Source of the DNA: Rhodobacterales bacterium
Lineage (GTDB): Bacteria > Pseudomonadota > Alphaproteobacteria > Rhodobacterales > Rhodobacteraceae
Reading direction: 5' to 3'
DNA: 59,004 bases
NCBI GenBank assembly: GCA_041737515.1
Contig: JBGSRQ010000315.1
Coordinates: 1 to 59,004, forward strand
Shown: positions 14,293 through 59,004 of the stretch, piece after piece
Numbering within the stretch: the first letter of the stretch is position 1
Layout: every line of letters starts with the position of its first letter
The notes under the pieces: generated by a model
Database searches by the model: none
The model's input: the letters and a program-made list of their open reading frames with translations, nothing else
What the model was told of the DNA's origin: nothing
Translations under genes and position numbers: made by a program

Positions 14293-16728
<2,436 letters not shown>

Positions 16729-16789
16729 TCAGCCTGTTTTATAGGCTTTTCCTGCATGATTGTCACGGCCTGACCACAAGATTTAGCGG

Positions 16790-17410: not shown

Positions 17411-18510
17411 GTCAACTCCTGCACGCAAGATGCGCCTGATGTTTCCACCACCAAAAACGTCTGCGCGCGCGGGCCAAGGCTATCAAACAGTGCAGCTTCT
17501 GTGCCAGTCATGATGGCTTGCGCGCCCAATGTGAGCAATTCTTCATAAAGTGCAGCGCGGCGGTCTGTATCCAGGTGGGCAGCCACTTCATCCAGCAGCA
17601 AAACAGGCGCGCGGCCAAGTTCGGCGGCCAGCGCGCGGGCGTTGGCAAGGATCAGGCTGATCAGCAGCGCCTTCTGCTCGCCGGTAGAGCATTGGTCGGC
17701 TGGCACGCCTTTTGCAGCATAGGTCGCGGCCAGATCGGCGCGATGCGGGCCGAGCAAGGTCCGCCCTGCGGAAAGGTCGCGGCGACGGTTTCGGGCAAGA
17801 GCCGACGCCAGATCATCAGGCACGGCATCGTCCCCGTCCGGCGCGGTCAGCGCCAGATCGGCGCGGGGGAAAGACGTATCGACACCCGTTTGCGCCTCGG
17901 CCAGCCGGGCAAGCGCATGGCTGCGGTTGGCGGTGATCGCCTGCGCCGCCTCGGCCATCTGGGCCTCCAGCGCCAGATACCAATGCGCGTCCGTGACCTG
18001 GTCTTTCAAAAGGCGGTTGCGGTCGCGCATCGCTTTTTCATAGGTCAGCACCGAGTCGGCATGGTCTGGCGCAAAGCTGAGCGTCATGCGGTCCAGAAAA
18101 CGTCGCCGCCCCTCGGCCGCCTCGATCCACAGCCGGTCCATCGACGGCACCAGCCAGACCATCCGCAATATCCGGCCCAGCATCACCTGCGTGGCAGCCT
18201 TGCCATCAATGCGCACCTGCCGGGGCTGGCCATGTTCGGCCCAGCTTTCCACATCATGTGCGGCGCCAAGGCCCTGGACTTCGGCAGCAATCTTCCAGCC
18301 CAGCACCTCAGGTCGTCGCGCCAGATCATCCGCCGCCGCCCGTCTGATACCCCGCCCGGGTGACAGAAGTGAGATCGCTTCAAGCACATTCGTCTTGCCC
18401 GCCCCGTTCGGCCCGATGATCGCCACGGGCCGCCCGTCAAACTGCATCCGCGTGACCGGATGGCTGCGAAAGTGCGCAAGGACAAGAGATGTGATTGCCA
18501 AACCCGGCAC
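17407..18510 (-). CDS. recF: DNA replication/repair protein RecF
   Basis: 367 aa. Walker A GPNGAGKTN, signature STGEQKALL, Walker B LLLDEV. Confidence 0.95.
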   Translation of the reverse strand: MPGLAITSLVLAHFRSHPVTRMQFDGRPVAIIGPNGAGKTNVLEAISLLSPGRGIRRAAADDLARRPEVLGWKIAAEVQGLGAAHDVESWAEHGQPRQVRIDGKAATQVMLGRILRMVWLVPSMDRLWIEAAEGRRRFLDRMTLSFAPDHADSVLTYEKAMRDRNRLLKDQVTDAHWYLALEAQMAEAAQAITANRSHALARLAEAQTGVDTSFPRADLALTAPDGDDAVPDDLASALARNRRRDLSAGRTLLGPHRADLAATYAAKGVPADQCSTGEQKALLISLILANARALAAELGRAPVLLLDEVAAHLDTDRRAALYEELLTLGAQAIMTGTEAALFDSLGPRAQTFLVVETSGASCVQELT

Positions 18511-18594
18511 GCGGTTTTTCTTTCCGGCAGCAGACCACCGATCACATTGTTGCCGGTGGAATATCAGAAGGCGGGACGCCCGGCTTGCCGCGGG

Positions 18595-19713
18595 TCAAAC
18601 GCGCATCGGCATCACGACATAGACAGCACTCAGATCATTGCCTTCACGCATCAGGGTCGGGTCGCCGGATGAATTGAACAGGAACACGGCATTTTCGCGG
18701 TCGACCTGACTGGCAATTTCCAACAGGTATTTCGCGTTGAATCCGATCTCCAGATGTTCATCGGCGTAGGCGACGGCCAGTTCTTCCTCGGCGGCACCGC
18801 TATCGGGTGCATTGACAGACAGCACCAGCCGATCCTCATCAAGGCTAAGCTTCACCGCCCGCGAGCGTTCTGAAGATACGGTTGCCACACGGTCCACCGC
18901 TTTGGCGAAATCGGCCGCATCGACTTCCAGCCGCTTGGTGTTTCCGGTTGGAATAACGCGGGTGTAGTCGGGGAAGGTGCCGTCAATCACCTTGGATGTC
19001 ATGGTGATGGCCGGAGTCGCGAACCGCACTTTGGTTTCCGACACCGACACGGCAATCATCGCCTCGTCATCATCCAGAAGCTTGCGCAATTCGCCCACAG
19101 TCTTGCGCGGCACGATGACGCCAGGCATTCCGGCGGCCCCGTCCGGCAGGGGCGCGTCAATGCGGGCAAGTCGGTGGCCGTCGGTCGCCACGCAGCGTAG
19201 AACCGGGCCATCTTCGCCCGTCGACACATGCATGTAGACACCGTTCAGGTAATAGCGCGTCTCTTCGGTCGAAATTGCAAATTTCGCTTTGTCGAACAGG
19301 CGGCGCAGCACCGGGGCCTTGCAGCCAAAGTTCGACGAATATTCCGACGACGCCATGACCGGAAAATCTTCCTTCGGCAGAGTCGCCAGATTAAAGACCG
19401 ACCTGCCTGCGGCAACCGTCAATCGCCCGGCGGCACTGTCTTCGGTCAGGCTGACCAGCGCACCGTCTGGCAATTTACGGACGATCTCGTGCAAAAGAAC
19501 CGCCGACACAGTCGTGGCACCGGCGCGTTCGACGACAGCACTCGTGCGGTCGATCACCTCGATATCCAGATCGGTGGCACGGAAGCTGACACTGGAGCCT
19601 TCCGCCTCGATCAGGACGTTGGCAAGGATGGGAATCGTATTGCGACGCTCAACAACCGATTGCGCTTGACCCACGGCTTTCAGAAGCGCCGCGCGTTCGA
19701 TGCTGATCTTCAT
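18595..19713 (-). CDS. dnaN: DNA polymerase III beta sliding clamp
   Basis: 372 aa. MKISIERAALLKAV...RNTIPILANVLIEA N-terminus and three-domain length. Confidence 0.97.
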   Translation of the reverse strand: MKISIERAALLKAVGQAQSVVERRNTIPILANVLIEAEGSSVSFRATDLDIEVIDRTSAVVERAGATTVSAVLLHEIVRKLPDGALVSLTEDSAAGRLTVAAGRSVFNLATLPKEDFPVMASSEYSSNFGCKAPVLRRLFDKAKFAISTEETRYYLNGVYMHVSTGEDGPVLRCVATDGHRLARIDAPLPDGAAGMPGVIVPRKTVGELRKLLDDDEAMIAVSVSETKVRFATPAITMTSKVIDGTFPDYTRVIPTGNTKRLEVDAADFAKAVDRVATVSSERSRAVKLSLDEDRLVLSVNAPDSGAAEEELAVAYADEHLEIGFNAKYLLEIASQVDRENAVFLFNSSGDPTLMREGNDLSAVYVVMPMRV

Positions 19714-19820
19714 TCGCTCATTCCCTTTTGGCAGCCCGCCCCCGAAGTGCAGCAGGGACGATGAACCTATCCGGTTTTAGCCGTGGCTCAAACAATTTTT
19801 CGGACATTCGGTGCGTTTAT

Positions 19821-19839
19821 GCGGGCCGTCAAGGCCCGC
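19821..19839 (-). terminator. 7-bp GC hairpin 4 nt after the dnaA stop (possible attenuator between dnaA and dnaN)
   Basis: GCGGGCC-gtcaa-GGCCCGC read directly. No U-tract follows on the minus strand, so termination is uncertain. Confidence 0.25.
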
Positions 19840-19842
19840 AGG

Positions 19843-21219
19843 TCACTGTTGCAGCAGACGGCGCAGAAGTTGCAGGTCATCGGTCATCTGACTGTCGGTC
19901 GCCATCAGCTCTTCAATCCTGCGCACGCCGTGCATGATGGTGGTGTGGTCCCGCCCACCAAAGCGGCGTCCAATTTCGGGCAGGCTGCGCTGGGTCAGTT
20001 GCTTGGCCAGATACATCGCAATCTGACGCGGCCGCGCGATGGTGCGTTGCCGCTTGGGGCCGATCATGTCGCTAAGCCGCACATTGTAATGCTCGGCCAC
20101 CTTGCGTTGAATTTCCTCGATCGTGACCTTGCGATCATTGGCGCGCAGAATGTCGGCCAGACAATCCTGCACCAGATCGAGCGTGATCTCGCGGCCGACA
20201 AGGCTGGCAAAGGCGAACAGGCGGGTCAAGGCTCCCTCCAGAACGCGGACGTTCGTCGTGATGCGATGCGCCAGAAACTCCAGGATTCCGTCCGAAAGCT
20301 GCAGGCCCTTGTATTGCAGGCGGTAATATTCCGCCTTTTGCTGCAGGATACCAAGCCGGAGTTCATAATCAGTCGGATGCAGATCTACGACCAGCCCGCA
20401 TTGCAGGCGCGATTTGATGCGATCTTCCAGATCCTTGATCTCGCCGGGGGCGCGGTCCGCCGAAATGACGATCTGTTTGTTCTGATCGACCAGCGCGTTG
20501 AAGGTATGAAAAAATTCATCCTGCGTGGAATCCTTGCCGGCGATGAACTGCACGTCGTCCACCATCAGCACGTCGACCGACCGGAACAGGCTTTTGAAAT
20601 CCATGATCTGACGGTCACGCAGGGCTTGCACGAACCGGTACATGAACTGCTCTGCCGACAGGTAAAGCACCCGCAATTCGGGGCGACGGGCGCGCAATTC
20701 ATGGGCAATGGCGTGCATCAGGTGGGTTTTGCCCAAGCCGACACCGCCATAAAGAAACAGAGGGTTGAAGCTGACCGGCCCGCCCTCGGCAACCCGCCGC
20801 GCGGCGGCATGGGCAAGCTCGTTCGGGGTGCCTACAACAAACGTATCAAACGTGAACCGCGCATCCAGAGGCGCACCGGGCATGTCGTCATCATTTGCGG
20901 GGGCCGGTTTGTCACTGGCGCGTGGCATCTTGGGCATGGGTTCGGCGCGCGCACTGACACTGACGTTGAACTCGGCGCGCTCTACTTCGGCGCCAGCCAG
21001 ATTAAGCTGGTGGCAGATATGGTCAGAGAAATTTCGCGACACCCAGTCGCCGAAGAAAACGGTTGGAACGTCAAATTGCACAACGCCATCACGCAAGCCC
21101 GACATCCGGAGAGGCTCGATCCATGTTGTGAAATTGTTTTTGCCTACCCGTTGCCTAAGCTCCTCACGCACTTTCCCCCAAGTTTCGTCCGTCATTCGAT
21201 CCGACCTGTCCGTCGCCAT
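19843..21219 (-). CDS. dnaA: chromosomal replication initiator DnaA
   Basis: Walker A GGVGLGKTHL, AAA+ sensor regions, C-terminal DnaA-box binding domain (IGRRFGGRDHTTIMHG). Start could alternatively be ATG 21195 (MTDETWGKV). Confidence 0.97.
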   Translation of the reverse strand: MATDRSDRMTDETWGKVREELRQRVGKNNFTTWIEPLRMSGLRDGVVQFDVPTVFFGDWVSRNFSDHICHQLNLAGAEVERAEFNVSVSARAEPMPKMPRASDKPAPANDDDMPGAPLDARFTFDTFVVGTPNELAHAAARRVAEGGPVSFNPLFLYGGVGLGKTHLMHAIAHELRARRPELRVLYLSAEQFMYRFVQALRDRQIMDFKSLFRSVDVLMVDDVQFIAGKDSTQDEFFHTFNALVDQNKQIVISADRAPGEIKDLEDRIKSRLQCGLVVDLHPTDYELRLGILQQKAEYYRLQYKGLQLSDGILEFLAHRITTNVRVLEGALTRLFAFASLVGREITLDLVQDCLADILRANDRKVTIEEIQRKVAEHYNVRLSDMIGPKRQRTIARPRQIAMYLAKQLTQRSLPEIGRRFGGRDHTTIMHGVRRIEELMATDSQMTDDLQLLRRLLQQ

Positions 21220-21279
21220 TCTTTTTGGCCCCTGTTGGGGCGCCTAACCTGCGCCCTTAAAACCCACACATACGATTCT

Positions 21280-21327
21280 GCCCGTGAACATCACGGGCAA
21301 CACAACAACTTCCGGGAAAACCCGGAA
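21280..21327. other. two adjacent perfect hairpins
   Basis: GCCCGTGA-aca-TCACGGGC (21280-21298, 8 bp) and TTCCGGG-aaaa-CCCGGAA (21310-21327, 7 bp). Confidence 0.6.
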
Positions 21328-21330
21328 CTG

Positions 21331-21354
21331 GGGAAACAGAACGTGGGAAACAGA
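21331..21354. repeat. 10-bp direct repeat GGGAAACAGA-acgt-GGGAAACAGA
   Basis: Exact copies at 21331-21340 and 21345-21354. A related GGGAAAAC lies at 21314-21321. Confidence 0.7.
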
Positions 21355-21368
21355 CGGCCAAAGCCGAT

Positions 21369-21377
21369 CTTTCCACA
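21369..21377. promoter_or_regulatory. DnaA-box-like 9-mer CTTTCCACA
   Basis: 7 of 9 match to the TTATCCACA consensus, including the invariant TCCACA core. Single copy only. Confidence 0.3.
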
Positions 21378-21391
21378 ATGATGATACGGTT

Positions 21392-32985: not shown

Positions 32986-34662
32986 TCAGAGTCGCAGATC
33001 AAGCCCTGCAGAGTTGGTTTTCATGGTGCGCTCGGCCGGTGCAAGGCGCACGGCGGCGGGTTCAGCGTCTGATGCTTGCGGTTCATCGCCGAAAGGCAGT
33101 TGCGGTTGCGAGCGGGTGAAACCGCCAGAACCACCTTGGGAAAACTGCAGCGTCGCGCCCGAAAATCCGGCGCCCCGAAGTTCTGCCGTCAGTTGATCGG
33201 CGTGGCGGCGCATCAGATCAAGGGTTTCGGGTCGGTCGGCAGAAACCATCACGCGCACATCACCGGCATCCTGCGAGATCGTCATGCGCAAATGACCCAG
33301 TTCTTCCGGCGCAAGGGTCAGCGTGACATGGCCTGTCGGCGCCGCTTTCACATGTGCCACAATCGTCGGGGCCAGTGGTTCTGCTGATACGACAGCGTAA
33401 CCCGTCACATGGGTCACAAGGATTCTGGATAACGGTTGAGGGTCGGGAAGCGTACCCCCCACAGGCAGTGTCTGCCTGACGACTGAAACAGGACTGTTCG
33501 CGAAATCCGTGCCTTGGACAACTTCTGTGTAGACATCTGTCTTTATGGCAAGGGCATTTGGATCGGTGTTTATTTCAGGCGGCGCAGGCATCTGCATGTG
33601 TGCGGTGGGTCGCAGATTCGGTTCTTCACGTTTGCGTTCAGCAAGAGGCGGCGTCAAACTTGGTTCCGAGGCGAGGCCTTCCGGAACAGAATCACCACTC
33701 GGCGCCACCTGTTCCGGGCCTGACTGGATCCGCGTTTGCGTGGATTTAATGGGGACAATCTGATCAGACGGAAGTGCCGCAGCAACCTGAGGCATCAGCC
33801 CTTGCGCCACCCAAAGCCGCTCGGTCGAGGATTGGAAACGTTCGGGTCTGGTCTTCACGCCCGTCTGTGATGGAACTTGAACAGGATGATTCGGTGTTTC
33901 GACCGGAATGGATTTGCCAGACCAGACCAGACCGGCCGGGGCTGTGGTCTTGCCCGCCACCTCCACTTTCTCCACCGTTTCAGCCATATCAACAGGCGAC
34001 GATACCACCGCAACGTCTGGCTGGCGTGAAGGAGTGCCGGGCACCTTGGCGTCGGCCATATTTTTCAGGTGATCAGCGTTTGTCGGTTCAACCCGGCTTG
34101 CTACATCAGCACTATGACCGTCGATCAGGGCACGTTGCGCGGAGCGTGGCACCTGTGACAACGGATCGTGCGCCACCGGACCCGCCGTCAGATTAGCAGC
34201 GTCATTTACCGGAGACGGTTCTGCAATATCTTCCGGTGGAAGTGCCGGTCGTAGCTGGCCTGGCTGAACAATCGCGGCTGCGAACACCGTGACATCTGTC
34301 GGACCATCCGGAACCTTCGCGTCGTTCGGTTCGTCGTAAGGATCGATGGAAATATGCGCAGGTGCAATGCCGCTTTGTGCCGCAACAACCTGCTCCGGGC
34401 CGCCACCGCCCACAGTCGGCACCAATGTCTGCGGCGCCGGAACAAGGGTTGAAGCCGGAAAAAGCGACAGATACGCGGCATCCATGGCCGCGTGTTCCAG
34501 ACGCCTGGTCACAACAGGCGGCGCCCGTTCAGGACCAATTTCAGGCATCAATTCGACATCAAGCAGGAACATCTCGTCCTGCACAGTCGGAACTTCGGCC
34601 GCGCCAACGCCTTGCGCTATTGCACCAGGATTAACGAAAGCAAGGGCGGTTGCAGTTTGCAT
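32986..34662 (-). CDS. fliK: flagellar hook-length control protein FliK
   Basis: 558 aa. Pro/Ala-rich disordered body and a C-terminal Flg_hook-type domain (LTLAPEELGHLRMTISQDAGDVRVMVSADRPETLDLMRRHADQLTAELRGAGF). Confidence 0.85.
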   Translation of the reverse strand: MQTATALAFVNPGAIAQGVGAAEVPTVQDEMFLLDVELMPEIGPERAPPVVTRRLEHAAMDAAYLSLFPASTLVPAPQTLVPTVGGGGPEQVVAAQSGIAPAHISIDPYDEPNDAKVPDGPTDVTVFAAAIVQPGQLRPALPPEDIAEPSPVNDAANLTAGPVAHDPLSQVPRSAQRALIDGHSADVASRVEPTNADHLKNMADAKVPGTPSRQPDVAVVSSPVDMAETVEKVEVAGKTTAPAGLVWSGKSIPVETPNHPVQVPSQTGVKTRPERFQSSTERLWVAQGLMPQVAAALPSDQIVPIKSTQTRIQSGPEQVAPSGDSVPEGLASEPSLTPPLAERKREEPNLRPTAHMQMPAPPEINTDPNALAIKTDVYTEVVQGTDFANSPVSVVRQTLPVGGTLPDPQPLSRILVTHVTGYAVVSAEPLAPTIVAHVKAAPTGHVTLTLAPEELGHLRMTISQDAGDVRVMVSADRPETLDLMRRHADQLTAELRGAGFSGATLQFSQGGSGGFTRSQPQLPFGDEPQASDAEPAAVRLAPAERTMKTNSAGLDLRL

Positions 34663-35406: not shown

Positions 35407-35421
35407 TTAAATTGTGCATAA
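35407..35421. promoter_or_regulatory. CtrA-box-like motif TTAA-N7-ATAA upstream of flagellin
   Basis: 7 of 8 match to TTAA-N7-TTAA, 190 nt upstream of the flagellin ATG. Confidence 0.3.
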
Positions 35422-39873: not shown

Positions 39874-39888
39874 TTAAACCTTGATGAA
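39874..39888. promoter_or_regulatory. CtrA-box-like motif TTAA-N7-TGAA in the fliI / flgB divergent region
   Basis: 7 of 8 match to TTAA-N7-TTAA. 48 nt from the fliI ATG and 23 nt from the flgB ATG. Confidence 0.25.
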
Positions 39889-40294: not shown

Positions 40295-40675
40295 ATGGCA
40301 GATCTTGTGACATCACTTGGCATGGCCGCCTCGGGAATGGAGGCGCAGGCGGCACGTTTGCGCCACGTTTCTGAAAACATCGCCAACGCCGATACCCCCG
40401 GTTACCACCGCAAAACGATCAGCTTTCAGGAAGCGATGGATGGCGGTTCGGTCAGGGCCGGCCCGGTGCGGCTAGACCGCAGCGCTTTGACGAAAATCTA
40501 CGATCCCAGCCACCCGATGGCGGATGAAACCGGTCACTATGACGGCTCGAATGTCGATCTGGTGATCGAAATTGCTGACGCGCGCGAAGCGCAGCGCAGC
40601 TACGAGGCGAACCTTCGCATGTTCGATCAGGCGCGGCAAATGACGCAAAGCCTGTTCGAATTGCTTCGCCGATAG
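40295..40675 (+). CDS. flgC: flagellar basal-body rod protein FlgC
   Basis: SENIANADTPGYHRK ... EIADAREAQRSYEANL. Confidence 0.93.
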   Translation: MADLVTSLGMAASGMEAQAARLRHVSENIANADTPGYHRKTISFQEAMDGGSVRAGPVRLDRSALTKIYDPSHPMADETGHYDGSNVDLVIEIADAREAQRSYEANLRMFDQARQMTQSLFELLRR

Positions 40676-40687
40676 AGGAGGTCCAGA

Positions 40688-40975
40688 ATGGATATCAATG
40701 CTTCTTTTGCCGCGCAGACCTATGCGCAAGCCCGGAAGGTTGCAGCCCCCCAGCCGCAACCTTCCGGAGCCTCTGGTTTCGCCGGAATGGCGACCAGTTT
40801 CATCGAAACGCTGAACACGGGCGAGGCGACAGCACGCGCCGCGATGACCGGTGGTGCAGATCCGCACGCTTTGGTGCAGGCCCTGTCGGCCACCAGTCTT
40901 GCCGTCGAAACCGTGGCCACTGTGCGCGACAAGGTGGTTGAGGCATATCAGGAAATCCTGCGGATGCCGGTGTGA
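40688..40975 (+). CDS. fliE: flagellar hook-basal body complex protein FliE
   Basis: 95 aa. C-terminal LAVETVATVRDKVVEAYQEILRMPV. Confidence 0.88.
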   Translation: MDINASFAAQTYAQARKVAAPQPQPSGASGFAGMATSFIETLNTGEATARAAMTGGADPHALVQALSATSLAVETVATVRDKVVEAYQEILRMPV

Positions 40976-40982
40976 GGATACC

Positions 40983-41249
40983 ATGACCGAAGCCGACATT
41001 TTTGACACCCTGCGCCAAGGTCTGTGGGTCGCCGTTCTGATGTCGGCGCCACTGCTGGCAGTTGCGCTGGTCGCAGGTCTGACCATTGGTCTGTTTCAGG
41101 CGTTGACCTCGGTGCAGGAAATGACCCTGACCTTCGTGCCCAAGGTCGGCGCGATGCTGATCGTTTTCTGGGTCTCGATGAGCTTCATGACGTCAACGCT
41201 GGTCGCGTATTTCACCGACCGCATCATACCGATGATCGCAGGAAGCTGA
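40983..41249 (+). CDS. fliQ: flagellar export apparatus protein FliQ
   Basis: 88 aa from ATG 40983. Two TM helices and the FliQ motif GLFQALTSVQEMTLTFVPK. Confidence 0.92.
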   Translation: MTEADIFDTLRQGLWVAVLMSAPLLAVALVAGLTIGLFQALTSVQEMTLTFVPKVGAMLIVFWVSMSFMTSTLVAYFTDRIIPMIAGS

Positions 41250-41250
41250 T

Positions 41251-41964
41251 ATGGACGCCGCAGGTTACACCACGCTAAGCCGCCAGTCGGGCCTGATGCG
41301 CGAAATGCAGGTGGTGGCAAACAACATCGCCAACGCCTCCACCACGGGCTTTCGTCGCGAAGGCGTGGTATTTTCCGAATATGTCGAACAGATGCAGGAT
41401 GAGCCGTCGCTTTCGATGGCAACCGCTGCGGCCCGCAATGTTGATCTGACGCAGGGCGGGTTGACCCAGACCGGCGGCAGCTTTGACTTTGCGATCGAAG
41501 GCGAGGGGTTCTTTTTGCTGGATACACCTCGCGGCCAGCGCCTGACACGGGCGGGCAGCTTCACGCCCTCAGCCGAGGGCGAGCTGGTCAACCCGGATGG
41601 TTACCGGCTGCTGGATCAGGGCGGTGCGCCCGTGTTCGTGCCACCCGACGCCGGGCCAGTGTCGATGGCACAGGATGGCACGCTCTCGGCCAATGGCCAG
41701 CCCATCGCCCGCGTTGGCCTTTGGCAGCCCAACACCGCCACCGATCTGCGCCATGAAAGTGGCACGGTCTTTGTGGCAGCAGGCGGTAGTCAACCCGTTG
41801 ACGGCGGCAAGATCCTGCAAGGCTACGTCGAAGACAGCAACGTCAACCCGGTCGTTGAAATCGCCCGGATGATTGATGTCCAGCGCGCCTACGAACTCGG
41901 TCAGACCTTTCTTGACCGAGAGGATTCACGCGTGCGCGGCGTGATCCAGACCCTTGGCCGATAG
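41251..41964 (+). CDS. flgF: flagellar basal-body rod protein FlgF
   Basis: 237 aa. ANNIANASTTGFRRE N-terminus and C-terminal VNPVVEIARMIDVQRAYE. Confidence 0.9.
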   Translation: MDAAGYTTLSRQSGLMREMQVVANNIANASTTGFRREGVVFSEYVEQMQDEPSLSMATAAARNVDLTQGGLTQTGGSFDFAIEGEGFFLLDTPRGQRLTRAGSFTPSAEGELVNPDGYRLLDQGGAPVFVPPDAGPVSMAQDGTLSANGQPIARVGLWQPNTATDLRHESGTVFVAAGGSQPVDGGKILQGYVEDSNVNPVVEIARMIDVQRAYELGQTFLDREDSRVRGVIQTLGR

Positions 41965-43914: not shown

Positions 43915-44367
43915 ATGTACAAACTGATCCCGCTCATCCTTGCCTTGATCGGACTTGGCGGCGGCGCCGGTGCGGGGTTGTATTTACGCCCTGGCTCCGT
44001 TGCGGCGGCCGAGCCGGAACATGTCGAGATGACCCCGGAAGAGCAGCCGGACTATGTAAAGATGTCGAACCAATTCATCATTCCGATCCTGCGCGAGGGG
44101 CGTGTCGCTTCGATGATGATCCTGTCTCTCAGTGTTGAGACACACCACGGCGGGACCGAAGACATATATGCCAAGGAACCGAAACTGCGCGACGCCTTCC
44201 TGCAAGTCATGTTCGACCATGCCAATGCCGGCGGGTTCGAAGGCGAATTCACCGACGCCTCGAAACTCATAGTCCTGCGCAAGGCCCTGAAAGAAGCCGC
44301 GCAAAAGGCGGTCGGCGATCTGGTTGCGGATGTTCTGATCGCCGATATCGCGCGTCAGGAAGGCTAA
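43915..44367 (+). CDS. fliL: flagellar basal body-associated protein FliL (copy 1)
   Basis: 150 aa. N-terminal TM helix, then a YVKMSNQFIIPIL...LRDAFLQVM FliL-type domain. Confidence 0.8.
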   Translation: MYKLIPLILALIGLGGGAGAGLYLRPGSVAAAEPEHVEMTPEEQPDYVKMSNQFIIPILREGRVASMMILSLSVETHHGGTEDIYAKEPKLRDAFLQVMFDHANAGGFEGEFTDASKLIVLRKALKEAAQKAVGDLVADVLIADIARQEG

Positions 44368-44371
44368 GCCA

Positions 44372-44707
44372 TCAGGGCTTTGAACCGCGCCTTCTGGCCT
44401 CCAGCAGGCGCAGGGCCTCCGTCCGGCCGAAGGCATGCCGGGTTTCGACCTGCGCTTCATGCCATGCCGCCGTCTGCCGGGCTAGATTGAGGTTGATCTC
44501 GGCACGGCGCTGGTCAGCCCAAAGTTGATACCGCAAATGTGCCTTCGCGGCCGTCAGCGGATCCAGGTCTTGCGCCGATGGCATGGCCAGTGACGCAAGA
44601 CGATCCAGGCTTTCCTGACGCAACCGGGTTGCCGCAGACAGCCGCATCTGCTGCACATCAAAAATCATGTCCGACAAGCGACAAATGTGCGCAAGCTTGT
44701 GCTTCAT
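44372..44707 (-). CDS. hypothetical coiled-coil protein coupled to flhB (FliJ-like candidate)
   Basis: 111 aa, Arg/Leu/Gln-rich helical. ATGA overlap with the flhB stop. Third-position GC counted by hand is about 69 percent. Confidence 0.55.
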   Translation of the reverse strand: MKHKLAHICRLSDMIFDVQQMRLSAATRLRQESLDRLASLAMPSAQDLDPLTAAKAHLRYQLWADQRRAEINLNLARQTAAWHEAQVETRHAFGRTEALRLLEARRRGSKP

Positions 44708-48638: not shown

Positions 48639-49409
48639 TCACGACGGATCGCCGAACAGCGGGCGTCGGGCCGACACGGCGGTAAACAGCGACGGCCCGG
48701 TTTGCGGCAAACCCGCCCGCAAAAGCGGGAATTGGTTTTCGCGGGGCTTCAGCGCGGCGAGACGCGCAGGTGCCTCGGTTTCCATTACCGGCAGTTGGTC
48801 GGACTGCGCCGCGAGGATCCGATCAAACCTGCGCCGGTATTTCTGTGCAAATTCTGGCGTACGAGAATGATAGGCCCCGGCCGCCACCGACCAGTCGCCA
48901 AATTCGCGGTAAAGGCGGTCAAGCAGCCGGGCCGCGTAAAGCGCATTGGTTTCGGGATCGAACATGCCCGACAGGTCGCGGAACCCCTCGGAGTGCCAAC
49001 GGTGGTTCAGCTGAAAGCAACCGACATCGACATTGGAGACGCCATTGGCAATTTGGCCCGAGACATAGGTTTCAGCCTCGGCTCGTGTGTTGAACCAATG
49101 GCTGTCTCCGCCCTGATTTGCAGCCCAGGGCCAGGGCCGCATCTGACCGGCACCACCCTTGAGGGTTCTGCCGGTTTCCGTAAGGCTGATTGAAAGCAAG
49201 ACCGCCAAAGGCACGCCGGTTTGTGCGGACGCATACTGCGATGCCACCTCACACAGGCTCGCGGGCGATTGCTCCCGTGCAGGAGCCGCTGTGGCAACGA
49301 TACCTGCAAAAAGAAAACTGGCGGAGGCGACACCCAGTCGCTGCAGCAGAACACCCGTGACCCGGACCGACCGGAATTCGCACTTATCTGAGGACACTTT
49401 CCGCTCCAC
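48639..49409 (-). CDS. secreted lytic transglycosylase (SLT domain; SltF-like flagellar PG hydrolase candidate)
   Basis: 256 aa. GTG start with GAGG RBS and a signal peptide. SLT core LLSISLTETGR ... VDVGCFQLNHRWH ... AGAYHS. Stop lies 1 nt from the flhA start. Confidence 0.8.
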   Translation of the reverse strand: MERKVSSDKCEFRSVRVTGVLLQRLGVASASFLFAGIVATAAPAREQSPASLCEVASQYASAQTGVPLAVLLSISLTETGRTLKGGAGQMRPWPWAANQGGDSHWFNTRAEAETYVSGQIANGVSNVDVGCFQLNHRWHSEGFRDLSGMFDPETNALYAARLLDRLYREFGDWSVAAGAYHSRTPEFAQKYRRRFDRILAAQSDQLPVMETEAPARLAALKPRENQFPLLRAGLPQTGPSLFTAVSARRPLFGDPS

Positions 49410-49486: not shown

Positions 49487-51688
49487 TCAAGGCCCTTTTG
49501 CAATCGCCAGAAGATCAGACAGGGTTTTTCGCGCAGTTGCAGATTCGGTCACCAATGCACGGCTTTGTGCCAGTGGACCTTTCTGCCCAGATGTACCGGC
49601 TGTACCATCCTGAACTGGTTCTGCCGCATCGCCCGGAACAAGCAACCGTGCCGCCGGAGCCCAGGGATCATCCGTTGTCGCGGCGATCTGCGGCCATTCT
49701 GCAGAAATCCGAGTTGCATGTTGTTCCTGCTCGACATCACCCAGTTCTTCAAATGTGCGCGCCGCGGTTCTGGTGTTGCCCGCCATCATCTCGGCCTTGG
49801 CGATTTGCTCAAGCGCCTCATCCGACGTTAATCCTGCCAGCAGTCCACGGACAAGTGTCGGGTTACGCTCTTGCAGCGCCGCTTGTGCCAGAAGCAGTCT
49901 GTCCGTCGGATCAGCCTGCCCGGGCTGATCAGCCTCGAGCTGCAACCATGACCGCGCGAGGCTGCCAAAACCAACCTTCAGCAGCCGGGTCGCGATGTCG
50001 CGACGCAGCACAAGCGGCAGTTTCAGCCGCTCGGCATCATCCACCGCTGTCGCATGGTTCAAGAATGGCGCCTCCGGGGCATTGGCCAACAACCGCCAGA
50101 CTGTTTCAGCAGCATCCGGGGTTGTGGGAAGCCGATCAAATGCGCCATCAAAATCGCCCAGCGCGGCACGGACCTTGGTCTGGACAAGGTGCAACGAGGG
50201 TTCCATTTCGGTGCCCTTGTACTCTTGTGCAAGCGCGTCAAAGGTGGTGACGCTCCGGGGATCAATGGGGTCATCGCTGTCAATCTGGCGCGTAACCATG
50301 AGGATTTTCGCCTTCACCGCGTCCGGACCGGTATCACTGCTCAGATCCGCAAGGTCATGTGTCGCAGCGGCGTTCTCACCCCTGTCGATCTTCAGCTCAA
50401 CCTCAGTCAGCCGAACCGCCGGACCGGGGTTTCCCGGTCCTCGCACGATGGAAGCGACAAGCGTTGTGGCCGTCTGGAGATCACCCGAAAGACGGAATGC
50501 TTCCGCAAGCCTGGCTCCCAGATGTCGCCGCAGATGCAGCGGCAGGGCCGAGAATGTCCGCAGAATGGCGCGCTTGTTCACGGTTTGCGCGTTTGTCTGG
50601 GACAGATCGGCCAAAAGTGACCAGAGCGCTGCAGCGTTGTCGCAGGCGGCCATTCCGGCAAAGGCCCCGCCGGGATCTTCCCTGCCCTCCATGATACCGG
50701 AAAGGGTCAAAAGCTGGTCCTGCTGCCGGGGTTCTGTGCCAAAGACAGTCAGAATCTGATAGGCCTCGGCCCCGAAGCCAAGGTAGATATAAAATCGGGC
50801 CGTCCTCGCGACGGCGTCAGGGTCTGGCTTGTCGAACTCTCCGGCAAGGTTTTGCTTTACGTCAGCGAACTGATCTGGGATCCGGTCTTCCCGACCCCAA
50901 GTGCCTAGATCGACCTCGTCATCCGGGAAACAGGCGTCGCCGGATTGGGTGAGCCTTTCTGGTTCATCCGTGTCAAAATTAGCCACCAAACCAAGATTTT
51001 GGCCGATGCGCACTTGGGACGCCAAGGCATGATCGGATGTCGGTCCTTCGTCCGGATTGCGCTGCGGCAGTTCAAGATCGACCATCCCCCGCGATGCGCC
51101 GTCGCTGAGTTGACGCAAGAGTGTTCTCTTCACTTCGCCAAGATCGGCCGTTTGCGAGGGCTCGAGCGGCAGCGAAGGAGGAGTCGGCGTTGTGCTGGGC
51201 AAGCCCTGCCACTCATAGCCAGCCAAGCTGTTTGTTCGCTCCGGGCGCGCACGCGGGCGAGGTCGGTCTGCCACGGTCAGCGCCGGCATCACAGCACCAC
51301 CAATAGAAGTTTCAAACGACGTACCTTGCGGCGGCGGCCCGTCCCGAACATCGACGACAATCGTGCCGGGCGCAATCTCGAACGGGGTCGCAAAACAGGC
51401 ACAACCCACGCCGAATTGCAGCGTGCCGCTGTCTGGATTAAGCGAAACCGAGCCTATCCGGTTCTTCGTGATCTTGTCGAAAACTCTTGATAGATCGTAG
51501 CGGGACCGCGACTTCCCCAGTGATATCTCATACCCCGTTTCTGTTCGCCCGAAGGCCCAATCGACAGCCCCCCCGGCGTTGATCACAAGACGTGTGAACG
51601 CCCCGTGTTCGCCAGAAGTGACAGACACGGTCTGGGCTACCCCACCTTGTGCCACGACCATCAACAGAACAATCAGGATGCCTTTCAT
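49487..51688 (-). CDS. large secreted protein of unknown function, translationally coupled to motA
   Basis: 733 aa. Signal peptide MKGILIVLLMVVAQGGVAQT, a beta-rich N-terminal module, a Pro-rich linker, and about 500 aa of Leu/Ala-rich helical region. ATG overlaps the motA stop (ATGA at 51685-51688). Confidence 0.8.
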   Translation of the reverse strand: MKGILIVLLMVVAQGGVAQTVSVTSGEHGAFTRLVINAGGAVDWAFGRTETGYEISLGKSRSRYDLSRVFDKITKNRIGSVSLNPDSGTLQFGVGCACFATPFEIAPGTIVVDVRDGPPPQGTSFETSIGGAVMPALTVADRPRPRARPERTNSLAGYEWQGLPSTTPTPPSLPLEPSQTADLGEVKRTLLRQLSDGASRGMVDLELPQRNPDEGPTSDHALASQVRIGQNLGLVANFDTDEPERLTQSGDACFPDDEVDLGTWGREDRIPDQFADVKQNLAGEFDKPDPDAVARTARFYIYLGFGAEAYQILTVFGTEPRQQDQLLTLSGIMEGREDPGGAFAGMAACDNAAALWSLLADLSQTNAQTVNKRAILRTFSALPLHLRRHLGARLAEAFRLSGDLQTATTLVASIVRGPGNPGPAVRLTEVELKIDRGENAAATHDLADLSSDTGPDAVKAKILMVTRQIDSDDPIDPRSVTTFDALAQEYKGTEMEPSLHLVQTKVRAALGDFDGAFDRLPTTPDAAETVWRLLANAPEAPFLNHATAVDDAERLKLPLVLRRDIATRLLKVGFGSLARSWLQLEADQPGQADPTDRLLLAQAALQERNPTLVRGLLAGLTSDEALEQIAKAEMMAGNTRTAARTFEELGDVEQEQHATRISAEWPQIAATTDDPWAPAARLLVPGDAAEPVQDGTAGTSGQKGPLAQSRALVTESATARKTLSDLLAIAKGP

Positions 51689-52554
51689 GCGACATCCTGT
51701 TTCAGCGAGCGTAGCGCCTCTTCCAGCGATGAAAACGAGGGGCGGACGTGATGCGGTGAATTCTGACGCCCGACTTCAATACACAGATTGGCCGCGTGGT
51801 TGTGAAGGTTGGCGATCAGAACCTCGCGGATCAAGTTGTAGAAATGCGCATCATCGTCAACAACCGCCTTGACCCGCGCCGCAAAGGGGCCAACCAGACC
51901 GTAGGCCATGAACACGCCCAGAAACGTGCCGACCAACGCACCGCCGATCATCTTGCCCAGAATTTCCGGCGGCTGGTCGATCGAGGCCATGGTTTTGATC
52001 ACCCCTAGAACTGCAGCCACAATGCCCAGCGCGGGAAGAGCGTCGGCAATGGATTGCAGGGCGTGACTGGAGTGAAGCGCGTGCGCCTGTGCTGTCTCCA
52101 TCCGCTTGTCCAGCACCTCTTCCACCTGATGCGGATCATCATAGTTCATTGATGCCGCGCGCAGCGTGTCGCAAATCAGATCGACGGACTCGTGATCTTT
52201 CTGAATTTTCGGATAACGCCCGAAGATCGTTGATTCCTTTGGGTTTTCGATGTGCTCTTCCAACGCCACCGGGTTCGACTTCGCGATTCTGATCAATTCG
52301 AACAACAAACAGAGCATGTCGCGGTAATCGGCCGGCTTCCATTTCGGGCCGGCAAACACCTTCTTGATGTCCTTGACCGTGTGTTTCACCCCGGCAAAAT
52401 CGTTCGACAACAAGAACGCACCCACGGCTGCGCCCGCGATCATGGTCATCTCATGAGGAAGGGCGTGCAGAATAATCTCCAGCTTGCCGCCGGCGGAAAC
52501 GTAGCCGCCGAAAACCATCACGAAGATGACCACGATACCGATAATGCCAAACAT
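51685..52554 (-). CDS. motA: flagellar stator protein MotA
   Basis: 289 aa. Four TM helices, conserved GALVGTFLGVFMAYG and cytoplasmic loop. RBS GGGAG. Confidence 0.93.
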   Translation of the reverse strand: MFGIIGIVVIFVMVFGGYVSAGGKLEIILHALPHEMTMIAGAAVGAFLLSNDFAGVKHTVKDIKKVFAGPKWKPADYRDMLCLLFELIRIAKSNPVALEEHIENPKESTIFGRYPKIQKDHESVDLICDTLRAASMNYDDPHQVEEVLDKRMETAQAHALHSSHALQSIADALPALGIVAAVLGVIKTMASIDQPPEILGKMIGGALVGTFLGVFMAYGLVGPFAARVKAVVDDDAHFYNLIREVLIANLHNHAANLCIEVGRQNSPHHVRPSFSSLEEALRSLKQDVA

Positions 52555-52639: not shown

Positions 52640-53203
52640 TTAGTTCTTTGGCACCAGCGCATTGCGCCCTGCCAAAATTGCGCTGACGGCATATGCAGAA
52701 TCGGGCGGCATTCCGGAAAGGATCGCGGCCGAGGCGGTGGGTTGCATACGGCCAAGAAACCCGGCAGAAAACTCCGGGTCCATCGAGGCAAAAAGCTTGG
52801 CCGCATCCTTGGGCTTCATCGCCTCATAAACCGACGTGAGACGCGCAAGATCGGCCTCGGCCGCCCCGTCAGCCAAGCTGAGCGTCGCCGAAAGCTTTGC
52901 CTCGGCTTCGGTCAGAGCGGTCATGCGCTGGTCAATGGCCGCATTGGCCAGATCAAGCGCGGCAAGTCGTTCTGCCAGCGCAGTTTCGCGGGATGCAACC
53001 TGCGTCTCGCGGTCGGTCAAGGCCTTGGCCAGGGCCGCAGGGGGCGTCGGGCAAATCAGAGGCGCCGCACCGTCACCTGCACTGGGCGCACGCGCCAGTG
53101 CCATGCCGAAGCCGTCTCCCAACCGCAAGGCCCCGGAGGATGCCAGAAGAAGCGAAAGGATGATCAGTGCGCCCCGCCCGGCGCGTTTGCGGCCACGGCT
53201 CAT
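52640..53203 (-). CDS. MotE/FlbB-like periplasmic flagellar protein
   Basis: 187 aa from ATG 53203 (ATGA overlap with the upstream gene). Signal-anchor, coiled coil, C-terminal VYEAMKPKDAAKLFASMDPEFSAGFLGRMQPTASAAILSGMPPDSA (MgtE_N-like repeat as in MotE/FlbB). Confidence 0.7.
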   Translation of the reverse strand: MSRGRKRAGRGALIILSLLLASSGALRLGDGFGMALARAPSAGDGAAPLICPTPPAALAKALTDRETQVASRETALAERLAALDLANAAIDQRMTALTEAEAKLSATLSLADGAAEADLARLTSVYEAMKPKDAAKLFASMDPEFSAGFLGRMQPTASAAILSGMPPDSAYAVSAILAGRNALVPKN

Positions 53204-53613
53204 TCGGCTGCCTCCAGTCCGTCGCGCATGGAGCGGCGCCGCACGAATCGCAATCGCTTCTCCGCGGCATCCTCGGGGTCGGATTCGGGTGCCGGGTTCC
53301 AACGGTCGGCCAAGGGTGATGCCTTTGGCGATGGAAGATCGTGCATCGACGCCAGCAACAACTCCAGCCGGATGGCGGCAGCATCTGCCCGCGCGTTAAG
53401 ACCCTGCAGGGCCGCGGCAGACCCCGAAGCTGCGTTGCGGGCCTGGTCGAGGGCTCTTGTCATATCGTCGACCTGCACGGAGAGGACGGCAATCGCCCCG
53501 CCCATCCCGGTTTCCAGCGTGGAAAACTTTTTCAGCCGGGCCGACAGGATGTAGCAATAGATTGCCGCGCCAAACGCGCCGGCAGCCATCAGGATATCTG
53601 CGATCAAGGCCAT
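53200..53613 (-). CDS. hypothetical single-pass membrane coiled-coil protein (flagellar operon)
   Basis: 137 aa. N-terminal TM MALIADILMAAGAFGAAIYCYIL, Ala-rich helical middle, acidic/basic tail. RBS AAGGG. Confidence 0.65.
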   Translation of the reverse strand: MALIADILMAAGAFGAAIYCYILSARLKKFSTLETGMGGAIAVLSVQVDDMTRALDQARNAASGSAAALQGLNARADAAAIRLELLLASMHDLPSPKASPLADRWNPAPESDPEDAAEKRLRFVRRRSMRDGLEAAE

Positions 53614-53624
53614 GATGCGCCCTT

Positions 53625-54266
53625 TCAGTTCAGAACAAATTCGGTGATCAGTAGATCGCGCACCCGGCCTTCGCCTGTGACGATCTGGATGCGGCGCAAC
53701 ATCTGCGCGCGCAGCGTCACAAGCGACGACGGGTCCTCAAGCTGGGCCACATCGACGGCACGCAGATAGCCGTTGATGACATCAAGAATGCGCGGCATCA
53801 GCATCGTCACCTCGGCCGCCATCGGCTTGTCGACCTCAAGCTGTGAGGACATGATCAGATGCGCATTGTTGGCCGCAGACCCCAGTGAGATCACCACTTG
53901 CTGCACCGGCACGAAGGCCAACTCCGGCAATCGTTCGTTGGCAGCCGTATTGTGCCGTCCCTCGGCCGGTGCCGCCTCACCATGGCCGGAGGCTGATTCG
54001 CCATGTCCAGCATCCACAGCCATTTCGCCATGATCGCCGTCGGGCTTTGCAGCCTCGCCGTGGTCAGCATCGGCCACGGTTTCCCCGTGCCCCCCACCGG
54101 ATGGATCGGCCATGGCCGCATCTGCGGCCGGCCCCAGAACAAGTCCGGAATAGGTGGCATAAAACCCGCCGCCCCCAAGCACCAGCGCCAGTACGACGCC
54201 GATCAGCAGGGGCAGTTTGGATTTCTTCTTCTGGGCTGCATCGGGGGCAACTTCGGGGTCTGACAT
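53625..54266 (-). CDS. fliL: FliL paralogue (copy 2) with His-Gly-Glu repeat linker
   Basis: 213 aa. Lys-rich N-terminus plus TM, five HGE repeats (aa 60-97), then a FliL domain FVPVQQVVISL...LRAQMLRRIQIVTGEGRVRDLLITEFVLN. Confidence 0.8.
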   Translation of the reverse strand: MSDPEVAPDAAQKKKSKLPLLIGVVLALVLGGGGFYATYSGLVLGPAADAAMADPSGGGHGETVADADHGEAAKPDGDHGEMAVDAGHGESASGHGEAAPAEGRHNTAANERLPELAFVPVQQVVISLGSAANNAHLIMSSQLEVDKPMAAEVTMLMPRILDVINGYLRAVDVAQLEDPSSLVTLRAQMLRRIQIVTGEGRVRDLLITEFVLN

Positions 54267-54312: not shown

Positions 54313-54327
54313 CTAACCGATTGTTAA
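54313..54327. promoter_or_regulatory. CtrA-box-like motif CTAA-N7-TTAA in the fliL2 / fliF divergent region
   Basis: 7 of 8 match to TTAA-N7-TTAA. 47 nt from the fliL2 ATG and 58 nt from the fliF GTG. Confidence 0.35.
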
Positions 54328-57678: not shown

Positions 57679-58773
57679 CTAGCGCACCACAAACTCGGCA
57701 TGCAGCGCCCCTGCGGCGTTGATGCTTTTCAGAATGTCGATCATGTCATAGGGTGCCACGCCCAGCGCGTTCAGCCCCGCCACGACTTCGGAAAGGTTCG
57801 TGCCCTCGCTCACTTCGGCAAGGCCGGTGCCATCGCCCTTTGTTATGTTGGTCTGGGTGCGTGGCACAACGACCGTTTCCCCATCGGTGAACGGGTTCGG
57901 CTGGCTGACAACAGGCGTTTCCTCGACCCGCAGCGTCAAATTACCCTGTGCCACTGCAACTTGCGAAATGCGCACGTCCGCTCCCATGACGATCGTGCCC
58001 GAGCGTTGATCGACCACCACCCGTGCCCGGGTTTCAGGCTCGACCAGCAGATTTTCCAGCCGCCCGATCACATGGGCGGGCGATGACATATAAGCTGCAT
58101 TCAGATCAAGCGCCACCGTGCCCGAATCAAGCATTACAGCGATCGGGTTGCCGAATTCGCGGTTGATCGTCTGCTCGATGCGCCCGGCAGTCGTGAAATC
58201 GGGGCTGCGCAGAGCTAGCCGAAGCGAGTCGAGCGCGGTGAAATCAAACGCGATCTCGCGCTCCACCCGCGCGCCCGCCGGGATTGTGCCTGAAGTCGGA
58301 ACCCCCTGCACGACACGCGATCCCTCGCCTTCGGCTGACACTCCGCCCGCAATGATCGTGCCTTGGGCTACGGCATAAATCTCGCCATCCGCGCCGTTCA
58401 ATGGCGTCAGAACCAGCGTACCGCCAAGCAGGCTTTTCGCATCGCCGATGGCAGACACCGTCACATCAATCTGCCCGCCTGCGCGCGCAAAGGGGGGCAG
58501 GCTGGCCGTCACAAAAACGGCTGCCACGTTCTTGGGCCGGAACTGCTCACCCGAGACATTCACACCCAGCCGCTCCAGCAGGTTGGTCATGATTTCTTCG
58601 GTGAAGGGCGCGTTGCGCAACCCGTCGCCGGTGCCGTTCAGGCCGACAACCAGGCCATAGCCGACCAGATCGTTGCTGCGCACCCCGTCGAACTCGACCA
58701 GATCCTTTATGCGGATCGGCCCTGCCTGAGCAGGGAACGCGAACATTGCGGCAATCAATGCGATTCGTATCAT
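57679..58773 (-). CDS. flgI: flagellar P-ring protein FlgI
   Basis: Signal peptide, then IRIKDLVEFDGVRSNDLVGYGLVVGLNGTGD. ATG 58773; alternative TTG at 58776. Confidence 0.95.
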   Translation of the reverse strand: MIRIALIAAMFAFPAQAGPIRIKDLVEFDGVRSNDLVGYGLVVGLNGTGDGLRNAPFTEEIMTNLLERLGVNVSGEQFRPKNVAAVFVTASLPPFARAGGQIDVTVSAIGDAKSLLGGTLVLTPLNGADGEIYAVAQGTIIAGGVSAEGEGSRVVQGVPTSGTIPAGARVEREIAFDFTALDSLRLALRSPDFTTAGRIEQTINREFGNPIAVMLDSGTVALDLNAAYMSSPAHVIGRLENLLVEPETRARVVVDQRSGTIVMGADVRISQVAVAQGNLTLRVEETPVVSQPNPFTDGETVVVPRTQTNITKGDGTGLAEVSEGTNLSEVVAGLNALGVAPYDMIDILKSINAAGALHAEFVVR

Positions 58774-59004
58774 CAAAGGTAATCCGCTAGGTTCAGGCGC
58801 GACAGCCGCGCGGTCAGTGTATAAAGCGTCTCGATCCGCGTCTGGGTTTCCTGCAGCCGGGTTGCAGCCTCGTAAGGGTCCACGGCCAGAAGGTCGGTCC
58901 GGGCAATCTGCAGCGCAGAGGCTTCAGATGCATTGCGGGTCTTTGCAGCCGCAATCTGGCCTTCGGTAATACCAAGGCGTGCGGCAAGATAGGTCTGATT
59001 GTCC
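58773..59004 (-). CDS. flgL: flagellar hook-associated protein FlgL, C-terminal fragment (5' end beyond the window)
   Basis: Open frame to the window edge ending ...EAATRLQETQTRIETLYTLTARLSRLNLADYL, a flagellin/FlgL-type C-terminal helix. Stop overlaps the flgI ATG by 1 nt. Confidence 0.7.
   Translation of the reverse strand, partial: DNQTYLAARLGITEGQIAAAKTRNASEASALQIARTDLLAVDPYEAATRLQETQTRIETLYTLTARLSRLNLADYL

Follow-up and report, generated by a model that had tools for sequence, protein, structure and literature searches.

What is the function of the gene that directly follows the stator gene motA in the flagellar cluster of a Rhodobacterales bacterium? We address this question for a contig of 59,004 nucleotides (NCBI GenBank assembly GCA_041737515.1, contig JBGSRQ010000315.1, positions 1 to 59,004), which is referred to as the window in the following. 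The gene lies on the minus strand (49487..51688) and encodes a protein of 733 amino acids (aa), which we examined by way of its open reading frame (ORF), a family alignment, an AlphaFold2 (AF2) model and Foldseek searches. A sequence-only reading of the window had found no characterised flagellar family in this protein and had proposed a periplasmic scaffold for the stator, either a functional analogue of MotC or something new. We consider it very likely that the 733-aa protein is an orthologue of MotK, the stator scaffold of the ancestral Rhodobacterales flagellum (Fla2, or fla1-type in roseobacter naming). What supports the assignment is the combination of synteny, domain architecture, matches in structure and the conservation of partner proteins, together with the BLAST statement of the paper in which MotK was described.

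The characterised counterparts

The name MotK and the characterisation of this protein date from 2024 and come from the Fla2 system of Cereibacter sphaeroides (RSP_1318 / RSWS8N_12065, Q3IY86; Velez-Gonzalez et al., PMC10954123). MotK is a protein of 652 aa with a Sec signal and is encoded by the last gene of the operon fliL2-pflI-motE-motA2-motK. Its β-strands span residues 23-119, with the AMIN domain of AmiC and then PilQ as templates, and its remainder comprises Pro-rich disordered regions, TPR-like (tetratricopeptide repeat) helices over residues 260-535 and a further disordered, Pro-rich part after residue ~540 (PMC10954123). The protein resides in the periplasm, binds both MotE and MotB2, and confers stability on MotE. 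Its localisation at the flagellated pole depends on MotA2/MotB2, and mutants in motK possess flagella that do not rotate (Mot-) (PMC10954123). The 733-aa protein resembles it in its operon place, with close or overlapping stop and start codons, in its AMIN-like domain, linkers and TPR-like helices, and in a putative Sec signal, whereas its solenoid continues to residue ~685 in the region where the helices of C. sphaeroides MotK give way to Pro-rich disorder.

A second counterpart is CP4 of Phaeobacter inhibens DSM 17395 (PGA1_c35690), whose gene is located directly after motA and before sltF-flhA (PMC12363192). Six transposon mutants of CP4 are immotile and still export FliC and hook proteins; the function of the protein was left open in that paper (PMC12363192). 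CP4 belongs to a member of the Roseobacteraceae and is likened to the 733-aa protein by its position after motA and its requirement for motility. The role of motK-type genes has thus already been established experimentally in 2024-2025, and the locus opens no new question in this respect. Consequently, the view that the protein belongs to no characterised flagellar family and might be new has been overtaken by the description of MotK in 2024 and by the finding in 2025 that CP4 is essential for motility, while the proposal of a periplasmic stator scaffold agrees with what is known of C. sphaeroides MotK, which is periplasmic, binds MotE and MotB2, and leaves the flagellum paralysed when lost.

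Gene junction and protein architecture

The start codon of the motK-type gene shares bases with the motA stop (ATGA at 51685-51688, read ...GTC GCA TGA AAG GC...), and an AGGA lies 6 nt 5' of this ATG. The overlap, which the sequence-only reading had pointed out, fits a possible translational coupling of the gene to motA. At the N-terminus of the protein, MKGILIVLLMVVAQGGVA|QT, a by-eye assessment recognises the n-h-c layout of a Sec-type signal peptide (residues 1-18): the n-region is basic, the hydrophobic core comprises 11 residues, and cleavage would occur at a small-x-Ala site (VA|Q). Residue A18 of this site is near-invariant in an alignment of 32 family members.

The same alignment served as input for an AF2 model of the whole protein, which reached a mean predicted local distance difference test (pLDDT) score of 81.6. 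In this model, an AMIN-like β-domain of nine strands (residues ~20-116, pLDDT ~85-90) is followed directly at its C-terminus by a highly conserved DGPPPxGSSFE motif (residues 116-126). Then come two Pro-rich disordered linkers (residues 148-182 and 203-243, pLDDT <50), separated by a strongly conserved helix (residues 184-199, LxxLRxxLLxQLSRGA...); proline accounts for 17.9% of residues 119-185. A TPR-like α-solenoid of ~435 aa (residues ~250-685) is built of continuous helices, mostly with pLDDT >90, and a C-terminal helix spans residues 705-729. Past the putative signal peptide, the model contains no predicted transmembrane (TM) helix. The signal peptide, the β-rich module, the Pro-rich linker and the helical part had all been named from the sequence alone, and all are recognisable in the sequence or the model. 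By analogy with the PflA linker and PflB, introduced below, the DGPPPxGSSFE motif and the isolated linker helix are candidate peptide-in-groove or partner-binding elements.

Structural matches

Modelled alone, the N-terminal domain reaches a pLDDT of 91 and a predicted TM-score (pTM) of 0.85. The top three PDB matches found by Foldseek for residues 19-130 are the AMIN domain of AmiC (4bin; TM-score over the query, TMq, 0.58), the B2 domain of PilQ (4aqz; TMq 0.64) and a further PilQ structure (4av2), with TMq values ranging from 0.56 to 0.64. For C. sphaeroides MotK, the same order of matches has been published (PMC10954123). The suspected AMIN-type module thus finds its closest structural matches in AmiC and PilQ AMIN domains: the fold is alike, but sequence identity to 4bin and 4aqz is as low as 13-15%. 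The family is furthermore marked by a GEHxxFTR motif and by a CxC that does not vary, neither of which is known as a feature of canonical AMIN domains.

For the whole model, the best match among 350,542 PDB chains is 9hmf_K, a chain of 773 residues from the periplasmic scaffold of Campylobacter jejuni (E 2.3e-5), which ranks above generic TPR and pentatricopeptide repeat (PPR) proteins. We take this chain to be PflA by its length, since 788 aa minus a signal peptide of ~15 residues gives 773. The solenoid of the AF2 model and these matches to the PflA-sized chain and to TPR/PPR proteins support the earlier suggestion of TPR-like helices, and TPR families of Pfam give weak matches in several family members.

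PflA combines an N-terminal β-sandwich, an unstructured linker and a TPR superhelix, and forms a radial spoke of the proximal disk by which stators are positioned in the Campylobacter motor (PMC12222027). The proteins of C. jejuni and Helicobacter pylori share with the 733-aa protein the succession of signal peptide, N-terminal β-sandwich, unstructured linker and long TPR superhelix, and PflA serves as a scaffold for MotB and is in contact with the region of the E-ring (PMC12222027). Despite this likeness, identity is 9% in the Foldseek alignment and there is no profile match. Moreover, the β-sandwich of PflA binds PflB, and the Campylobacter scaffold possesses a basal and a medial disk, for which no counterparts are known in Rhodobacterales. 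The flagellar operons examined showed neither PflB nor another large TPR protein, although no dedicated search was made for them.

Conserved position next to motA

In the window, the gene order is fliL-(DUF6468/pflI)-motE-motA-X-SLT-flhA-fliR-flhB, where X is the gene of the 733-aa protein and SLT denotes an SLT-domain gene. The motK-type gene is hence the last motor gene of a fliL-pflI-motE-motA-motK operon. The identical order recurs in five relatives, namely a Rhodobacterales metagenome-assembled genome, Paragemmobacter ruber, Szabonella alba, Rhodobacter ferrooxidans and the 3.7-Mb metagenome contig ERZ25039524, and a further metagenome contig, L003, shows the shorter order motE-motA-X. 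On a plasmid of Paroceanicella profunda, the order is fliL-hyp-hyp-motA-X, with an 883-aa homologue as X. At all these loci, the start codon of X either shares bases with the stop codon of motA, as ATGA or TGATG, or follows it after a 2-nt gap (seven junctions plus the plasmid). The question raised by the sequence-only reading, whether the gene is always adjacent to motA, can therefore be answered in the affirmative for every locus examined, including the plasmid cluster. Likewise, the order fliL-pflI-motE-motA-motK has been reported as conserved in the Paracoccaceae (PMC10954123).

This conservation bears on the idea that the 733-aa protein is a general envelope protein of the AMIN/TPR type, active for instance in division or peptidoglycan remodelling, which lies beside motA by chance. 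Such a role could be read into its parts, given that AmiC and PilQ are the best-known carriers of AMIN domains, that TPR solenoids are generic scaffolds and that the next gene encodes a lytic transglycosylase. Yet a chance neighbour would hardly keep so strict a place, with its start overlapping or abutting motA in every locus including the plasmid cluster, and mutants at this position have motility-specific phenotypes in two species. We regard this explanation as highly improbable.

Two of these loci deserve a separate remark. The Paroceanicella cluster (plasmid pD4M1D, NZ_CP040822.1, 88962-103255) is a flagellar cluster on a non-mobilizable plasmid of 137 kb; its divergent MotK-type gene of 883 aa overlaps the motA stop and is followed by flgF/G-flgA-flgH, not by sltF-flhA. 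In contig L003, which is 1.4 kb long, positions 1380-1426 look like sequencing-adapter sequence (AGATCGGAAGAGC-like, reverse complement). Because of this adapter-like end, we treat the last ~40 bases of the contig, and the ORF tail 'RRASCRERV' that they encode, as artefactual.

The place of motB

The sequence-only reading had noted that the window holds no motB-like gene. Our scans agree: Pfam searches of all long ORFs found no MotB/OmpA family in the window, and a six-frame motif scan found no OmpA-type motif. All long ORFs were scanned because gene calling based on GC content at third codon positions (GC3) is uninformative at 60% GC. What did not stand was the accompanying view that the 733-aa protein sits at the usual place of motB. 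This is an enterobacterial expectation; in the archetypal cluster of Rhodobacterales, motB is the first gene of an operon of its own, motB-flgEKLI, which lies divergent to fliFHNP (PMC12363192). The flagellar cluster of the window extends from fliK (32986-34662) to flgI (57679-58776) and stops just short of the window end, and a relative with 85% identity (L002) has flgE-flgK-flgL-flgI exactly where the window breaks off. From the organisation of the motB-flgEKLI operon and the position of these genes in the relative, motB would be expected ~4-5 kb past the window end. Its absence is accordingly the expected effect of where the window ends, with motB probably residing in its separate operon.

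The same observations speak to the possibility that the protein replaces MotB, i.e. that the stator lacks MotB and uses the 733-aa protein as its peptidoglycan anchor. The missing motB in the 59-kb window, the putative peptidoglycan-binding domain and the overlap of its start with the motA stop might be taken in this sense. However, the protein shows none of the MotB-type features looked for: it has no OmpA/MotB Pfam match, its putative signal is of the cleavable kind, and its model lacks a further TM helix, so that there is no predicted helix past the signal peptide of the kind that carries the proton-binding Asp of MotB. In addition, motB would be expected in the motB-flgEKLI operon: the window breaks off shortly after flgI, exactly where the close relative has flgE-K-L-I, and C. 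sphaeroides has MotB2 and MotK and requires both (PMC10954123). A MotB-less stator is therefore, in our view, extremely improbable.

Partner proteins and the relation to MotC

The conservation of the partners was assessed with peptide tags translated from the primers that were published with MotK. MotE of the window contains one Cys, in the sequence APLICPTPPA (motif APLxCPxPP), and the primer-derived tag of C. sphaeroides MotE reads APLDCPEPPL, with the protein ending in ...ALAPSE. This Cys is essential for the stability of C. sphaeroides MotE (PMC10954123); the key cysteine of the partner is thus kept. The MotE proteins of the five relatives likewise contain just one Cys each, with P-x-P-P next to it on the C-terminal side, and the Paragemmobacter protein ends in ...NALAPTE. 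The MotA tag is NMCIEVG in C. sphaeroides and NLCIEVG in the window, and AEAAVRTG, with which mature C. sphaeroides MotK begins, is in register with the family pattern A-x3-V-x2-G-E-H.

A MotE-like gene upstream in the same operon had already been recognised in the sequence-only reading, and MgtE_N and collar_FlbB give weak matches to its product. This gene also invites the comparison with rhizobial MotC, a periplasmic, TPR-rich partner of MotE in Sinorhizobium meliloti that is proposed to act on MotB and is needed for rotation. Could the 733-aa protein be an analogue, or a very distant homologue, of this MotB-binding and MotE-chaperoned protein? The operon contains a MotE homologue and no MotC was found with Pfam and NCBIfam; furthermore, a 2026 review describes MotC and MotK both as TPR-rich partners of MotE that are probably distant homologues. 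On the other hand, no MotC family model of Pfam or NCBIfam matches the 733-aa protein, MotC has no AMIN domain according to the review, and motC of S. meliloti follows motB, whereas the gene studied here follows motA. The two systems also differ in the direction of stabilisation, as MotE stabilises MotC in S. meliloti, while MotK stabilises MotE in C. sphaeroides. We consider a MotC-type identity very unlikely, and since it overlaps with MotK at the level of what the protein works like, it does not imply a separate mechanism. Of the earlier suggestion of a functional MotC analogue or a new component, the kinship with MotC survives as the distant homology deemed probable in the review, and a direct assignment finds no match to a MotC model. 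The review groups MotK with MotC, PflA and FlcB as TPR partners of an E-ring protein, and it is among these that we assign the 733-aa protein to MotK.

Points against the assignment

Several observations weigh against the identification with MotK, or at least against carrying all properties of MotK over to the 733-aa protein. Firstly, C. sphaeroides MotK entered our comparison through its published description and the primer-derived tags, not through its full sequence. The tags AEAAVRTG... and ...GGEQPPDG matched none of 344 retrieved proteins, and a tag-based protein query gave no candidate for C. sphaeroides MotK. Likewise, a search from a Rhodobacter-like family member (P0094) brought up no Cereibacter protein among the 120 of 707 matches listed, a metagenome scan with the primer FW-1318HindIII led to one contig, L003, which stems from a different Paracoccaceae organism, and a scan of genome contigs with a single protein matched the 85%-identical relative only. 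Secondly, C. sphaeroides MotK has 652 aa and falls into the short size class of the family, in contrast to the 733 aa found here, and its similarity to proteins of other Rhodobacterales is called 'low' in the original paper (PMC10954123). In favour of the assignment, the same paper states that similar proteins are detected by BLAST in the Paracoccaceae (PMC10954123).

Thirdly, family models offer no help. The 733-aa protein has no match in Pfam and NCBIfam (Pfam: 0 families at E<=1), and none of their curated models covers the MotK family. The sequence-only reading had held that a confident profile match to a characterised protein would speak against its proposal of a new component; a match to a characterised protein does exist by way of synteny and architecture, but there is no curated hidden Markov model (HMM) by which to score it.

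Finally, the structural matches have their limits. The Foldseek E-values for the AMIN matches are modest, at 0.02-0.08. There is no Pfam AMIN match above threshold in the 733-aa protein, and PF24837 (AMIN-like) matches 14 of the 32 family members weakly, with a best E of 0.0021. Because of these modest E-values and weak matches, we describe the N-terminal domain as an AMIN-like fold and consider its membership of the AMIN sequence family unproven. The global TM-score to the PflA-sized chain 9hmf_K is low, at 0.19, which is to be expected for flexible two-domain solenoids but is not decisive. When all PDB sequences were searched with the family profile (E<=10), 9hmf was absent and no match was significant; the profile found just weak matches of the TPR type (coatomer epsilon and a TPR-like kinesin light chain). 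For the 733-aa protein, we infer peptidoglycan binding, the contacts with MotE and MotB and the spoke geometry from MotK and PflA.

An extended family with invariant cysteines

The family comprises 3,607 representatives at 50% identity (E<=1e-3), 2,545 of them at E<=1e-30, and its N-terminal domain is strongly conserved, with a mean column identity of 66%. Among the members retrieved, those with a name go under 'hypothetical protein' or, in occasional cases, 'TPR/HEAT repeat protein'. They come in long forms of ~705-800 aa, to which the 733-aa protein belongs, and in short forms of ~650-684 aa, which do not possess the equivalents of residues ~585-650 (about two helical hairpins) and 690-701. 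Given its 3,607 representatives, the family is among the more widespread unannotated accessory proteins of the flagellum. For annotation, this 'hypothetical' family can now be labelled as a MotK-type stator scaffold, and a curated HMM would be useful.

The 733-aa protein contains four cysteines, Cys 96, 98, 253 and 349, all of which are invariant in the 32-sequence alignment. They are kept even in the Paroceanicella homologue, which is 24% identical and to which 695 columns of the family profile align in collinear order (hhalign E 3.4e-49). Such conservation hints at disulfide bonds in the periplasm, which may connect the AMIN-like domain with the first part of the solenoid. The cysteines of MotK are not discussed in the C. 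sphaeroides paper (PMC10954123), and their invariance is a minor new detail. The conserved cysteines and the PflA-like spoke idea discussed below are modest leads, and the main value of the finding lies in correct annotation.

A tentative mechanism

How might such a protein act? By analogy with MotK and PflA, the TPR superhelix would, after export, bind the dimer of MotE, an E-ring protein of the FlgY/FlbB type around the MS-ring, as well as the periplasmic part of MotB, and the AMIN-like domain may anchor the assembly to the peptidoglycan. The assembly would then gather stator units around the rotor or keep them in an open, proton-conducting state, and loss of the protein would be predicted to yield flagella that are built but do not rotate. 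Because of the PflA-like layout, we favour a spoke-like arrangement between the E-ring and the stator ring as a plausible, and the most likely, geometry. In broader terms, the findings support the view that E-ring proteins (MotE, FlgY or FlbB) and a TPR partner (MotK, MotC, PflA or FlcB) constitute an ancient and widespread module for positioning the stator.

A more specific version goes further and is, in our estimation, rather unlikely, namely that the long-form MotK found in most Rhodobacterales makes up a ring of PflA-like radial spokes between the MotE E-ring and the stators and is secured by a disulfide lock (C96-x-C98 against C253/C349). If true, the stators of this alphaproteobacterial motor would be held statically by a fixed scaffold in the periplasm. 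Stator recruitment would, in this case, depend on oxidative folding in the periplasm, with inter-domain disulfides fastening the putative peptidoglycan-binding domain to the TPR arm.

The operon and its neighbours

The genes from fliL to the SLT-domain gene are all encoded on the minus strand. The first gene is fliL (53625..54266; Pfam FliL E 3.5e-13), followed by a pflI-like gene for 137 aa (53200..53613), which has a weak DUF6468 match and the place of pflI in the published operon. motE follows with 187 aa from the ATG at 53203 (52640..53203; MgtE_N E 1.4e-5 and collar_FlbB E 7e-6, both weak). The longest ORF for this gene (52640-53302, 220 aa) begins with a TTG at 53302 and would overlap pflI by ~100 nt; since the gene calls of relatives are 183-197 aa long, with 187 aa in the closest one, we place the start at the ATG. 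It forms an ATGA with the pflI stop, and both the pflI-motE and the motA-motK junction thus show a 4-nt overlap. motA (51685..52554) encodes the stator channel subunit of 289 aa (TIGR03818 E 5.7e-109; Pfam MotA_N and MotA_ExbB). The next gene 3' of motK encodes an SltF-like lytic transglycosylase with an SLT domain (48639..49409; SLT E 3e-6), whose counterpart at this position in P. inhibens has been named sltF (PMC12363192), and is followed by the genes for FlhA, FliR and FlhB.

The published fla2 fliL operon of C. sphaeroides is CtrA-dependent (PMC10954123). In the window, a CtrA-box-like sequence, CTAACCGATTGTTAA, lies on the plus strand in the divergent fliL/fliF promoter region (54313..54327), with one mismatch to TTAA-N7-TTAA. 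An enrichment of such boxes can be dismissed, as the four near-matches across the window compare with 2.3 expected and are not significant. Three of the four are located in or near flagellar promoters: the one between fliL and fliF at 54313-54327, one upstream of flagellin (35407-35421) and one at the 5' end of the fliI ORF (39874-39888). Because the count is not above chance, the support for CtrA boxes is positional only.

Some further genes of the flagellar cluster were noted in passing. A second, weak FliL-like gene of 150 aa on the plus strand (43915-44367; Pfam FliL E 1.4e-4, below threshold) adjoins flgH; it recalls MotF, the FliL paralogue of S. meliloti, and a second fliL is annotated here in P. 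inhibens. A small conserved ORF of 111 aa after flhB (44372-44707, minus strand) has no family match and probably corresponds to 'gene 19, unknown function' of a 2025 comparison. Two further small conserved ORFs of 204 and 150 aa without family match lie at 40472-41548 on the minus strand, where a relative has fliQ, fliE, flgC and flgB on the opposite strand.

The wider window

Outside the flagellar cluster, the window carries a block of housekeeping genes, comprising genes for a PBP, a thiolase, a serA-like protein, dapF, gyrB, recF, dnaN, ubiE and an oligopeptide ABC transporter. Among these, gyrB, recF and dnaN lie within 14293-21381, together with what is probably dnaA (a 458-aa ORF on the minus strand, 19843-21219). 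Because these genes are ~12 kb away, the flagellar cluster appears to be close to a probable replication origin, and the same location has been reported for P. inhibens.

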